A DNA stretch of 26,501 nt, from positions 1 through 26,501 of IMG/VR virus record IMGVR_UViG_2534682163_000012; one strand, given 5' to 3'. This DNA is from a virus (Duplodnaviria; Heunggongvirae; Uroviricota; Caudoviricetes). The position numbers were made by a program. This document shows positions 21,001-24,000 of the stretch, one piece after another (the first letter of the stretch is position 1; every line of letters begins with the position of its first letter).

Positions 21001-24000
21001 ACCACACTTCGCTGGTGGCAGCTTTGATCAGGAAAACATAGCGCCCGCCTTTATCACGCATGGCACTGGCATGCTTCATGATGTAACGCATGCCGGTGAT
21101 GTATTGCCCCTCATGCTGACTGGCGCGGCTGTATGGGGGATTACCAAAGGCAGCACCTTTAAGCTCCGCAAGACGTTCTGACCAGTCATGCGCCAGCGCA
21201 TTGTCTTCCGCCGTGTAATACGCGGCACATTTGGCGTTATCACCGTCAGTAAACAGATCCAGAACAAACGGGCCAAACAGGGTGTTAATTCCCCAGAAAA
21301 TGTTGTCCGGCGTGCGCCACTGATCGCCCACTTCCTTCAGTTCATGGGCTGGTTTGTTCCGCAGTTCCACCAGCGCCTGGCAATATTTATTACTCATTAA
21401 GCCCCCACGTAATTCCCTGACAGATACCACTCTTCACCCGATGCAGCGCGCTTGCTGCTTTTCCGTAAGCACCGCTCACGACGTGCCAGAAAATTGTTTC
21501 GTTCTTGCTGGGAGTGGCTTTCACGGAATGCCGCCATCCACACGGTTGCAGCACGACGGTATAAGCCCCTTGACTCCAGTTCTTCAGCCTGGCGGGTCAG
21601 GCACAAAATCACCCGTGGATCGTTAGTGCCGACATAGAAATTGCGCACAGGTCTGGTTTCACGAACTGGTTGTGGTTCCGGCTCCTGCGCTCTCTCAGTC
21701 AGGCGCGGGAAATGTCTGCGTGTATCTCCTTCACAACGGTGAGCCACACGCCCACTCTGACGTAACTTGCTTGCTGACTGCAGAACGCGCTGCCGTGAGT
21801 AACCTGCAAAAGCATCCGCAATGTCTCCGGAAGTACAGCCCGGATGGGCTTCAATGAATTTCTGAACGTCATTCAAAAGACCCATGCTCACCCCCTGAAT
21901 CCTGCCGGGATCTGGCTGTAGTCCACGTTGTCGTAACTGGCTTTGAAGTACGGGTCCTCGCGTCTGGCTGCAGATACCGCAGGAACTTCCCAGGATTCTT
22001 CGAAATGACGATCCGGGCCAAAGAACGTGACAGCCTGTTTCACAAATTGTGTGCCGCTGTTACCCATCGCAGATACCCAGCCCGCGTAGCGTTTCACACC
22101 TGCCAGCATGGTTTCGGGTTTTACCCCCTCATTCAAACGGGCTTTCCAGGCTTTGAAGGCTGCAGATTTTGAATTGCCACCAGCACGTTTGGGGTATGCC
22201 AGCCATGCCTGCTCAAACTCCGGAGAGTATTCCGATCGGTTTGAACGAACTCGCACAGACTCATCAGCAGATGCACCAACAGCTATTGGTTCATTGACTG
22301 GTTCTTTGACTGGTTCAAAAGAGTGACTGGTTCTGGGTGAATCTCCTGCACTACCCCCTGGTGCAACTCCTGCACTACCTGGTGAATTTGCTGCACCAGA
22401 TAGTGAATTATTTGCACTACCCCCTAGTGAATCTCCTGCACCATCAAGATGAAGGAGATAGATATTACTTGAGTTACCTTTTTCACCTTTCCGGGTGACT
22501 TTTTTTACCAGCCCGGACTCACAAAGGGCCGCAATATGATTCATCACAGAACGTTTGCTAATCTCGCACTGGTCAGCAATATGCTGGTAGCTGGGCCAGC
22601 ACTCACCCTGATCGCTGGCATTATCAGCCAGCTTGATCAGAACCAGTTTTCGCAATGGATTACCCACTCGAATTTTCATCGCTTTAACCATCAGCTCCAT
22701 ACTCATGCTGCACCTCCGAGATGCTTCATGTTTTTTCCGGAGCGAAAGGCTATAAGCGGCATACTGACGCGGTAATTACGGCCCAGCGGTTCACAAATCA
22801 CCTTCTGACATTCACGGTCAACCAGGCTAACACGTAGAACATGCCCTGCAGGCGTGGTGTACCACTGACCCGGACGAGGACAACGGAAAGTCTGATTGGT
22901 AAAACGTTTGAAAATATTCCGGATCATTTGCGCCCCCTTGCCTCTGAAGGGTTCAGCGACAAATTTATGAGGCAGGCCAGCGCCGAAGCATCATTAATAT
23001 AGTCATATAAGCTAACAGCCAGCGGAGATTCGGCTTTTGCCAACATAGGATAAAGCTGCTGCAGCCAGACCTGATGAATTGATGAAATGTAGGAACAGAG
23101 AACGCTGGCGTTATGTGCAACGTCGCTCGGTACAGCGGGCTTTGAAAGCTGTTTCTCCATCTGGTTAAAGGCATTGATGTATGCCTCTTTGAACTGGGCA
23201 GCACGTTTACCAGTGAAGCCCATGGCAAGAAACGCAAAACCGTCGCGGGTGATTTGATAGCAAGGAAGTTTGCGAGTACCGCCGTTGGGCTGGCGTACCA
23301 AAATTGATGTCTCCGCAAAATTGCGGGCACAAAACTCTGGAGAACAATCCAAAATGCGGATCTTTTTCAGAACATCGTCATGACGTTTAGAGAAGAAGTC
23401 AGCAACAGCCAAAGAAGATGTAACAGCCTGACCATCAACGATGGCAATTTCAGGTTGAGAGAGGGTTGGGAGAGTAGTCATAGTGACAGCCCCGGTAGTC
23501 AGTTTTTTAGAAAACTCACCACATGGGACGCCAATCACAGAGGTGGTGAGACGTACAGGGTTGGCGTTACCGGAGACTACCGAACCCGGCCCGACCGAAG
23601 TCGGCCCTGTACGCCCCACCATAATTTGGGCGTAGCAATGCTCATGACACGAAAAAACCGCATGAGCGCGGTTATGCTCAGTAATCAATTTCAGGACGCC
23701 AATCCCGGCACCCGCTTTATAAGGTGCCGGTACAGTGTAACGTCCCGGAATTGCAGAATCAATATGCTGCTGGTCCTTCACACTCAACAAAATCACGCCT
23801 GAATTTCCACAAAGGACTAAAGCACTCATGCGGGTAGTCTTTGCGAAGATAGATAACGCGCTGTGTTTCTGGCTCCCAACGAATAACATGAACATAAAGT
23901 CCTCTTCCGTCACGAAACCAGCGGTTAAGTTCCTGCACAACTCGCCCCCCACAGTCAGGTAAAGTTCTCTGTGGTTACTTACAGCCAGGTGATTTGGTAA

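Follow-up and report, generated by a model that had tools for sequence, protein, structure and literature searches.

The region upstream of rha in the window analysed here, a stretch of 26,501 nucleotides from a Caudoviricetes virus (IMG/VR record IMGVR_UViG_2534682163_000012), contains a C4-type antisense RNA module. With a probability of about 0.8, the element is an unremarkable example of the RNA-based lysis-lysogeny control systems represented by P1 immI, P4 immunity and Gifsy-1 isrK. Membership in the family, the architecture of the module, the co-variation of regulators with their targets and the nesting of open reading frames were observed directly. An earlier note on this DNA had proposed an antisense RNA of C4 type with a loop that varies together with a site in the ribosome-binding region of the gene that follows, in the manner of P1/P7. 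This proposal was borne out; the prophage module is correctly described, but ordinary, and belongs to an already well-known phage immunity system. A second module of the same layout was found in a satellite that occupies the beginning of the window. The features of both copies are collected in Table 1.

Table 1. Coordinates of the RNA modules, their targets and the associated genes in the window.
Feature	Position	Strand	Basis
Putative constitutive promoter, prophage	23734..23762	(-)	-35 TTGATT 23762-23757, 17-nt spacer, -10 TACACT 23739-23734
IsrK/seqA-type leader RNA, prophage	23651..23727	(-)	Rfam isrK RF01394, 59.3 bits
C4 antisense RNA, prophage	23539..23626	(-)	Rfam C4 RF01695, 82.3 bits; MFE; stem covariation
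a2 target site, AUUGGCGUC	23527..23535	(-)	complementary to C4 3' single strand, -10.5 kcal/mol
b2 target site, core GACUACCG (23500-23493) with G-U extension	23490..23501	(-)	complementary to C4 loop
rha, 185 aa, short form	22924..23481	(-)	Pfam PF09669, 95.9 bits; TIGR02681, 92.8 bits
Long open frame, 387 aa, through promoter, isrK and C4 into rha	22924..24087	(-)	Phage_ASH; annotated relatives
Satellite promoter, TTGATC, 18-nt spacer, TATGAT	4072..4101	(-)	promoter scan; aligned with the P1 P1c4 promoter
Satellite IsrK/seqA-type leader	3989..4065	(-)	Rfam isrK, 63.3 bits
Satellite C4 antisense RNA	3877..3964	(-)	Rfam C4, 75.4 bits
Satellite targets, a2 UUCUCAC (3872-3866) and b2 CAAUCAAGG (3842-3834)	3833..3873	(-)	complementarity to satellite C4
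Icd-like small protein, 62 aa, equivalent of P4 kil / P1 icd	3634..3822	(-)	NCBIfam NF033153, 59.7 bits

The RNA element placed by the earlier note at 23542-23622 on the minus strand is real. It is contained in a match to the Rfam C4 model that covers model positions 1-87 of 87 (E 5e-15; the curated gathering threshold is 45 bits for the full model), and its minimum free energy structure, of -47.7 kcal/mol (z = -5.5), coincides with the family consensus. The satellite copy likewise matches the model along its entire length. The prophage copy has the architecture of the family, with a long outer stem around a UUCG-type hairpin and a second hairpin carrying a variable loop of ~12 nt. Among 13 diverse homologues, compensatory changes were found at 15 of the 28 stem pairs, and no pair of the outer stem was broken. 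A tRNA-like acceptor-type stem and a 3' end ...CACCACC are visible in the sequence, and the mature RNA is predicted, from homology to the annotated 77-nt P1 c4, to extend from 23622 to 23542.

The loop of the b' hairpin is GUUCGGUAGUCU (23585-23574), and its core CGGUAGUC is perfectly complementary to the 8-mer GACUACCG near the rha AUG, as had been claimed; the only other occurrence of this 8-mer in the window is the loop itself. With two G-U pairs added, the duplex reaches 10 bp. The prior chance of a complement of 8-9 nt inside ~60 nt is near 1e-3 per copy, and shuffling of the target region gave p = 0.0025 for the prophage and p = 0.002 for the satellite. The b2 site of the prophage overlaps a weak Shine-Dalgarno sequence of rha (GGGG), and in both copies 11 nt separate the end of the core pairing from the AUG. 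A second pair of regulator and target, which the earlier note had overlooked, is formed by the 3' single strand of C4, which co-varies with sites located 3' of C4 and inside isrK. The a' segment of the prophage, AACGCCAA (23568-23561), includes ACGCCAA, complementary to UUGGCGU at 23534-23528, and a2 co-varies with this strand in every homologue. In the minimum free energy fold of the whole 258-nt leader, the C4 fold is kept, with a2 and b2 in a local hairpin; pairing of the leader to C4 is absent from this fold, which is uninformative on sequestration in cis.

The box of 27 bp that precedes both copies (25/27 identical, GCACCUUAUAAAGCGGGUGCCGGGAUU versus GCACCUCAUAAAACGGGUGCCGGGAUU) and the terminator that follows each of them (23673-23656 and 4010-3994) were again found. 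They are not mere upstream context, as had been supposed, but make up an IsrK/seqA/c4-a1b1 leader, which belongs to a curated RNA family and in which both C4 target sites occur a second time, the box being the 5' hairpin of the prophage leader. Both leaders match isrK over model positions 1-77 of 77 (cutoff 50 bits) and have two 5' hairpins and a Rho-independent terminator, the terminators being called independently. In the prophage, a1 (UUGGCGU, 23702-23696) is situated in the loop of the second hairpin and forms a duplex of -12.1 kcal/mol with C4, b1 (GAUUACUG, 23686-23679) forms one of -15.7 kcal/mol, and the terminator is followed by a U-tract. The corresponding sites of the satellite leader are a1 UUCUCAC (4040-4034) and b1 CAAUCGAGG (4025-4017). 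A dedicated Rfam family, c4-a1b1 (RF03163, cutoff 46.7), exists for the a1/b1 targets; the prophage scored below it, with 24.1 bits at 23688-23740, the satellite gave no match to it, and the scores of P4 and P1 were 44.1 (also sub-threshold) and 51.0, respectively. The leader region that is sub-threshold for c4-a1b1 is covered by the isrK model. The putative prophage promoter was found by eye, with 8/12 matching positions, under the scanner threshold of 9/12, so that the scanner made no call; it aligns in register both with the satellite promoter and with the annotated P1 P1c4 (P51b) promoter, and mEp460 and ST64B show it conserved as well.

Both copies have the full layout of P1 immI, consisting of promoter, a1, b1, terminator, C4, a2, b2/SD and gene, where each of the two C4 segments has one upstream and one downstream site and the distal downstream site lies at the ribosome-binding site of the first gene. 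The annotated promoter, a1, b1, c4, a2 and b2 of P1 were in register in a six-way alignment, which included P1 and P4 and began at the -35 box and ended at the ATG. The segments of the satellite C4 are the b' loop UUCCCUUGAUUG (3923-3912) and a' UGUGAGAA (3906-3899), and its b2 overlaps the SD AAGGAGG of the icd-like gene (AUG at 3822). In a wider genome comparison, loop and target were related in the same way in 29 independent specificity types, which came from viral contigs, and cognate pairs were ~6 kcal/mol better than non-cognate ones. The mean energies over the 29 types were -13.1 (cognate) versus -6.9 kcal/mol (non-cognate) for the loop with the downstream site, -9.2 versus -5.8 kcal/mol for the 3' strand with the downstream site, -12.1 versus -7.5 kcal/mol for the loop with the leader site and -8.8 versus -6.1 kcal/mol for the 3' strand with the leader site.

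The short form of Rha starts at 23481, and Pfam Phage_pRha spans aa 21-110 from that start; overlapping ATGA junctions couple rha to the two genes that follow it, orf74 (22703-22927) and a gene of an O-like replication protein (21888-22706). The icd-like gene heads the replication operon of the satellite, followed by DUF4222 and a D5-type primase (1201-3033). The RNA module of the prophage lies in a frame that is open for 202 codons 5' of the rha AUG, and the ATG of this frame overlaps the TGA of a CP76-type cII gene (24084-24635; ATGA overlap 24087-24084). Pfam Phage_ASH matches the long ORF with 42.0 bits at aa 117-212, which is the translated RNA module, and matches the long Eta-like form of the satellite (start ATG 4173) with 36.8 bits, the cutoff being 26; the satellite form also has an Icd-like match, and P4 Eta and P1 Icd match the same Icd-like model as the satellite protein. 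The same long ORF with ATGA coupling is annotated in mEp460 and ST64B, in the latter with the remark "similar to P4 ORF199", and the open frame across the module is conserved in these phages and in most of the viral-contig loci. A chance shadow frame was rejected on the grounds of the ATGA coupling, the conservation in mEp460 and ST64B, Phage_ASH and the parallel with P4 eta. The values of dN/dS were 0.59 for the extension, 0.83 for the RNA part and 0.15 for Rha, and the long frame is under only weak amino-acid constraint. This is the nested-gene architecture of P4 eta/kil, with the RNA genes inside a long Phage_ASH ORF and with Rha and the Icd-like protein as the short forms. The earlier note had regarded translation of the region as a refutation of the RNA; since both RNAs lie inside long Phage_ASH frames, like the P4 RNA genes nested in the translated eta ORF, translation would not refute it.

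The following course of events is proposed. The constitutive promoter inside the long frame would drive the IsrK/seqA-type leader, and most transcripts would stop at its own terminator. Read-through transcripts would include C4. On the model of P1 and P4, C4 would then be released as a stable RNA of ~80 nt through cleavage by RNase P and trimming at the 3' end. Its b' loop and the a' 3' internal segment would pair with b2, at the rha SD, and with a2 on the same type of transcript, blocking translation of rha; because of the ATGA coupling of rha to orf74 and the O-like gene, expression of these downstream genes would be reduced too. With a1 and b1 as decoys, the leader may compete for C4, either in cis or in trans; an activating role of this kind has been shown for IsrK in Gifsy-1. 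In lytic growth, transcription from pR would lead ribosomes from the cII-like gene into the long ORF via the ATGA overlap, and translation across isrK and C4 would prevent the action of both the terminator and C4, like translation of eta in P4. The satellite copy would act likewise on the icd-like-primase operon with another a'/b' specificity. A direct block of the ribosome on rha is less obvious than in the satellite, since the rha SD is weak and b2 ends 11 nt before the AUG, whereas b2 of the satellite covers the SD.

The strongest alternative is an attenuation of P4 type, in which pairing of C4 with a1/b1 and with the downstream sites mainly causes premature termination rather than a block of rha translation, the element being a transcriptional attenuator of the rha-replication operon. 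In our opinion, this is a tangible, if minority, possibility. P4 CI and seqA match the same Rfam models as the module in the window, an intrinsic terminator lies in the leader directly 3' of b1, and the nested long ORF coupled to an upstream gene is present in the prophage as well; according to the summary of the P4 literature in PMC10111431, interactions of CI and seqA bring about termination of the P4 transcript, which translation of eta prevents. However, b2 of both copies and of every homologue overlaps the SD region and has a conserved ...GAGG/GGAGG next to it, which argues for a translational target, as in P1 icd. Attenuation and translational block are not mutually exclusive.

It is rather unlikely that the region works by IsrK-type activation only, where the short leader RNA opens an inactive read-through mRNA in trans and switches translation on, and C4/STnc1160 is a passive structured part of the mRNA or the "orf45" coding region. 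Genetic and structural experiments on Gifsy-1 speak in favour of such activation, and the leader in the window is above the isrK threshold; the Gifsy-1 study credited alternative mRNA structures and an "orf45" peptide, invoked no C4-type repressor and found that constitutive STnc1160 failed to relieve toxicity (PMC4825925). But this explanation leaves unaccounted for the conserved a2 and b2 sites co-varying with the C4 loop and 3' strand, and it ignores the homology to two RNAs shown to be repressors, P1 c4 and P4 CI, while the data fit IsrK as a decoy of C4, a possibility raised by the Gifsy-1 authors themselves (PMC4825925). That the region is simply protein-coding, for a 387-aa Ash-Rha fusion regulator with incidental RNA-family matches, is most improbable in spite of the open frame, the Phage_ASH match, the annotation of the long ORF in mEp460, ST64B and KF030445 and the same ATGA coupling in related phages: compensatory double substitutions in stem pairs are unexplained by protein coding, co-variation links the C4 loop and 3' strand to four distinct sites, dN/dS of the RNA part is far from that of Rha, the loops of homologues have 9, 12 or 14 nt with many frames out of frame with the downstream gene, the Rfam E-values are ~1e-15, and in P4 the coding and RNA readings hold together, so that this is hardly an alternative to the C4-type antisense RNA.

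Positions 1-8333 of the window belong to the satellite, with int (6921-8159), an HTH gene, BRO-N, primase and SSB, and the window from 8319 onwards corresponds to phage 1720a-02, starting in mid-terL, with 15 bp common to both at the junction. At its integrase end, the satellite adjoins terL of the helper in mid-gene. O145:H28 strain 16003 carries the composite in full, the element is flanked by both terL halves in L130 and L131, and the satellite/terL junction was found in 83 complete genomes. The satellite thus fits the definition of a helper-embedded PICI (HE-PICI), an element with integrase/AlpA-like, Bro, replication and late zones that has integrated into a late prophage gene, here terL of an Stx prophage, and it belongs to a published class already reported with C4/isrK. 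A second copy of the 15-bp junction core was not found at the other satellite end in RM10410; the window stops short of that end of the satellite.

The suggestion that the satellite had copied the control context of its helper was rejected from the matrix of module identities, which were 54% between prophage and satellite, 55% between prophage and P1 and 55% between satellite and P4, so that the two copies are no closer to each other than the prophage is to P1 or the satellite to P4, and from the distribution of the module. P4 itself carries isrK, C4 and an Icd-like kil; a 99%-identical satellite module is located in a chromosomal PICI (EH41) with the helper absent nearby; and in related HE-PICIs of the O145:H28, O157:H7 and RM10410 prophages, the isrK-C4 module is absent altogether.

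The specificities of prophage and satellite differ, as had been noted, and since their a' and b' segments differ in this way, the two modules would be heteroimmune at the RNA level. The accompanying claim that each loop matches only its own target stood for the satellite loop, for which a good site is absent from the prophage leader (best -5.6 kcal/mol), but not for the prophage loop, whose segment GGUAGUCU is complementary to AGGCUGCC in the satellite leader (3833-3826, -13.9 kcal/mol). AGGCUGCC sits exactly between the SD and the AUG of the icd-like gene; there, the prophage loop beats the satellite's own loop (-12.4 kcal/mol) and is the best of 23 loop alleles on the satellite site (shuffle p = 0.013). 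From these modelled energies, it is conceivable, but very doubtful, that the helper prophage C4 may also act on the embedded satellite via the SD-AUG spacer; the reverse interaction, of the satellite C4 with the prophage, is not predicted from duplex energies. A conserved or evolved cross-pairing from helper to satellite is unsupported, given the related HE-PICIs without the module and the near-identical chromosomal copy. If the helper C4 did act on this satellite, the lysogenic helper would hold the replication operon of the satellite off via RNA and induction of the helper would release it, which would constitute RNA-level control of the satellite by the helper within the HE-PICI composite.

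The value of these results is mainly practical. The region between cII and the replication genes in the Stx2 phage, mEp460, ST64B and their relatives is now labelled as an "antirepressor" of 287-387 aa, but an RNA immunity switch of P1/P4 type lies within it, and what the Pfam "Ash" domain describes is largely C4/isrK RNA in translation. Stx phages may accordingly have an RNA checkpoint that acts on rha and the replication genes and, through them, on the induction of the toxin phage; in a literature search on C4 RNA, antirepressor and satellite, no work on this RNA in Stx phages came up. The two specificities co-resident in one composite of satellite and helper are a tidy example of heteroimmunity, with no new principle or kind of system.

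Among known systems, the Gifsy-1 region isrK - orf45/STnc1160 - anrP resembles the prophage module as proposed here, having a prophage leader sRNA with a leaky terminator, then a stable processed RNA, then an antirepressor-like gene, with the leader acting on a read-through transcript; IsrK read-through, the processed stable STnc1160 and the analogy with seqA/CI were noted by its authors (Hershko-Shalev et al. 2016, PMC4825925). Unlike in the present proposal, the published mechanism consists of alternative mRNA folds and a translated orf45, with no C4-type repressor. From the HE-PICIs of PMC10111431, where the terminase (gene A) site is listed and Rfam C4/isrK matches are reported in several PICIs and HE-PICIs, the satellite differs in nothing substantive; that paper is silent on a helper with its own C4 module of different specificity.

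P4 is similar in that its CI matches Rfam C4 (74.9 bits) and its seqA matches isrK (60.8 bits), and in that the RNA genes are nested in a long Eta/Phage_ASH ORF coupled to an upstream gene, with an Icd-like short Kil form. The satellite has exactly the eta/kil arrangement, the logic of which is described in the P4 summary of PMC10111431, and the prophage has the same arrangement with Rha replacing Kil. In contrast, seqA and CI of P4 have an additional partial duplication between them, and the satellite is of PICI type (D5-type primase, SSB and BRO-N, with its own prohead protease/capsid in relatives); sid/psu/delta genes of P4 type were not seen in the window.

Unlike in P1, the first regulated gene of the prophage is rha, with icd absent and the replication genes next, the module forms part of the pR operon of a lambdoid Stx phage and not of a separate immI region, and the leader fits isrK better than c4-a1b1 (59 versus 24 bits). 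P1/P7 immI is nevertheless like both copies in its order of elements from promoter to first gene, including a terminator-like hairpin before C4. P1 c4 matches the same Rfam C4 model (68.8 bits), the b' loop pairs at the SD and the a' 3' single strand just after C4, and the satellite, like P1, has an Icd-like first gene. In both cases, few bases set the specificity, and the heteroimmunity of P1 and P7 rests on differences in immI (PMC6906374).

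An RNA element that pairs through its loop with a site upstream of rha, as the earlier note had described, is confirmed. When the whole window was scanned with Rfam at the curated cutoffs (45 bits for C4 and 50 bits for isrK), both models matched the prophage module, which precedes rha, and the satellite module, which precedes an icd-like gene. The predicted mature prophage C4 (23622-23542) folds at -47.7 kcal/mol (z = -5.5). Its loop and target are exactly complementary over 8 nt (10 bp counting two G-U pairs), those of the satellite over 9 nt, and target-region shuffling gave p ~0.002 for each copy. 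The 27-bp box and terminator reported ahead of both copies also held: 25 of 27 positions are identical, and the terminators were called independently. Since the isrK matches cover box and terminator in both copies, these elements constitute an IsrK-type leader.

Features of the window, with coordinates and basis
Feature	Position	Strand	Basis
Cloverleaf-like RNA, imperfect	23626-23539	-	direct reading of 23300-23900
Prophage C4 second hairpin loop GUUCGGUAGUCU	23585-23574	-	direct reading
Prophage loop target GACUACCG	23500-23493	-	direct reading
rha AUG	23481	-	direct reading
C4 antisense RNA (RF01695), prophage	23539-23626	-	Rfam 82.3 bits
C4 antisense RNA (RF01695), satellite	3877-3964	-	Rfam 75.4 bits
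isrK (RF01394), prophage	23651-23727	-	Rfam 59.3 bits
isrK (RF01394), satellite	3989-4065	-	Rfam 63.3 bits
Satellite first gene, Icd-like	3822-3634	-	NF033153 59.7 bits
Conceptual translations of isrK-C4-target region	23452-23739; 3790-4070	-	Phage_ASH
int/terL junction, 15 bp CCCTACATCCAAAAA common to satellite end and terL	8319-8333		
Truncated terL	8321-9328	-	
Satellite integrase	6921-8159	-	
STnc100 and tRNA features	14272-14482; 15897-16148	-	

In both C4 RNAs a further single-stranded segment lies 3' of the loop hairpin (prophage, AACGCCAA; satellite, UGUGAGAA); it was absent from the earlier note together with its leader and downstream sites. The prophage segment is complementary to UUGGCGU (23534-23528) and the satellite segment to UUCUCAC (3872-3866), in each case immediately after C4. 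Sites complementary to each of the two C4 segments, loop and 3' strand, are also found in the leaders, namely UUGGCGU (23702-23696) and GAUUACUG (23686-23679) in the prophage and UUCUCAC (4040-4034) and CAAUCGAGG (4025-4017) in the satellite. The same layout is annotated in the P1 genome record as a1-b1-c4-a2-b2, with b' for the loop and a' for the 3' strand. The Rfam C4 model matches P1 c4 and P4 CI, the isrK model matches the seqA region of P4, and a separate family exists for the leader sites (RF03163, "c4-a1b1: a1, b1 targets of C4 antisense RNA"). Window prophage and window satellite were aligned with mEp460, ST64B, P4 and P1 over the stretch between the -35 box and the ATG. In this six-way alignment, the P1c4 promoter annotated in P1 lines up with TTGATT-17-TACACT (23762-23734) of the prophage and TTGATC-18-TATGAT (4101-4072) of the satellite.

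Among 75 parsable C4 loci retrieved from viral contigs by a pattern scan, there were 29 distinct loop/3'-strand combinations (23 loops, 15 3' strands). Mean duplex energies of cognate versus non-cognate pairs were -13.1 versus -6.9 kcal/mol for the loop with the downstream leader and -12.1 versus -7.5 kcal/mol with the upstream leader; the corresponding values for the 3' strand were -9.2 versus -5.8 and -8.8 versus -6.1 kcal/mol. Loop and 3' strand reassort independently among these loci, and when 13 diverse C4 sequences were compared, 15 of the 28 stem pairs showed compensatory double changes. Thus, the proposed co-variation of regulator and target is real and general, and it is a known property of the C4 family.

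Genuine regulation of the satellite by the prophage C4 is very improbable. The prophage loop GGUAGUCU (23574-23581(-)) can pair with the SD-AUG spacer AGGCUGCC (3833-3826) ahead of the satellite icd-like AUG at -13.9 kcal/mol, through six Watson-Crick and two G-U pairs, and ranks best of 23 loops on this leader (shuffle p = 0.013). No site matching the prophage C4 3' strand was found in the satellite leader, and the association of helper loop and satellite spacer is not conserved. The motif GAGGCUGCCA is kept at the SD-AUG position in P4, mEp460 and ST64B; the prophage's own leader is altered to GGGGCUGUCA.

The suggestion that the satellite copied the control context of its helper is unsupported by module identities and distribution. 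The two modules share 54% identity over ~298 nt, the same level as prophage versus P1 (55%) and satellite versus P4 (55%), and a chromosomal PICI adjoining cspD in E. coli EH41 has a module 99.1% identical to that of the satellite. The satellite as a whole is closest to RM10410 (99.8%), where the module is gone through an in-frame 336-nt deletion (window ~3680-4120 versus 6672-6781 of that locus); promoter, isrK and C4 are missing along with the first icd codons, and the N-terminus of the upstream ORF is fused to the Icd-like core. C4 and isrK likewise gave no match in related elements carried by O145:H28 and O157:H7 prophages. Therefore, this satellite clade seems able to dispense with the RNA switch or to lose it often. 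At the EH41 locus (21452-22118), a single isrK precedes two C4 copies in tandem (75 and 71 bits), with three annotated Icd-like ORFs interspersed.

The product starting at ATG 23481 is a Rha-family protein (PF09669, TIGR02681), and ATGA overlaps link rha, orf74 and an O-like replication protein (HTH_36/DnaD_N). The Icd-like model of the satellite gene also matches Icd of P1 and, in P4, the C-terminal part of Eta, i.e. Kil; DUF4222 and a D5-type primase follow this gene. The codons right after the regulated AUG are alike despite different proteins: MATTPTL (Icd-like), MTTLPTL (Rha) and MATIPAL (Rha-like), in the window at 3822-3802(-) and 23481-23461(-) and in comparison loci L050, L072 and L109. 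Either the coding start lies within an exchangeable regulatory cassette or recombination junctions fall just inside the genes.

The rha frame is open for 202 further codons upstream, across C4, leader and promoter, and its ATG at 24087 overlaps the TGA of a CP76-type cII gene. The same long ORF and overlap are annotated in mEp460 and ST64B, in the latter as "similar to P4 ORF199". Pfam Phage_ASH (PF10554) matches residues 117-212 of the prophage long ORF, i.e. the translated RNA module, as well as the satellite long form (ATG 4173) and P4 Eta. Against ST64B, dN/dS amounts to 0.83 in the RNA part and 0.59 in the extension ahead of isrK, compared with 0.15 in Rha; judging by these comparisons, openness of the frame is maintained and its amino acids are barely constrained. 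With dN/dS of ~0.8, the Phage_ASH "protein domain" seems conserved largely owing to the overlapped RNA genes. In the 120-codon extension (23728-24087(-)), dS against ST64B is 0.28, versus 0.87 in rha, which suggests constraint at the nucleotide level (for instance a promoter or further RNA signals) or recent exchange, and not constraint on the protein. Nearly all of the viral-contig homologues have a frame open through the module, either sharing the reading frame of the downstream gene or overlapping that gene's start. The Stx2 phage 1720a-02 record (KF030445) annotates a 287-aa "antirepressor" starting inside the module.

These nested frames agree with the published logic of P4 eta/kil, where a constitutive promoter lies within eta, CI and seqA interactions bring about termination, the short form is Kil, full-length Eta arises solely by coupled translation from an upstream promoter, and this translation keeps termination from occurring (PMC10111431). 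The idea that translation of the region would refute the RNA consequently fails. By homology, transcription from the internal promoter would supply leader and C4 in the lysogen, and C4 pairing with the downstream a2/b2 sites would block rha and, via coupling and polarity, lower the replication genes. The main effect may be either translational, as in P1, or on termination, as in P4. The leader a1/b1 sites would compete for C4, which could explain why IsrK acts as an activator in Gifsy-1; for that prophage the seqA/CI analogy was pointed out, along with a processed stable RNA, STnc1160, downstream of IsrK (PMC4825925). On induction, pR transcription with coupled long-frame translation would override the switch.

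The PICI-type satellite occupies 1-8333, and collinearity with phage 1720a-02 starts at 8319, in mid-terL. In O145:H28 strain 16003 the element is flanked by both terL halves, and the int|terL junction was found in 83 complete E. coli genomes. A strong STnc100 match (146 bits) closely follows stxB, and three tRNA genes (Arg-tct, Arg-tcg and Met-cat) closely precede stxA, as is standard in Stx2 phages. KF030445 carries cat and aph marker insertions and a truncated stxA; at these positions (10579; 14647-15316) lysis-region sequence and stx2AB are intact in the window, which hence represents the unmodified prophage. The satellite belongs to the helper-embedded PICI class, and C4/isrK matches in PICIs and HE-PICIs have already been reported (PMC10111431).

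Summarizing, the identity and specificity proposed for the module stand; the origin of the satellite copy and translation as a refutation do not. The module type is already known, and every component falls in curated families with characterised prototypes: P1/P7 c4, P4 CI/seqA/eta-kil and Gifsy-1 IsrK.
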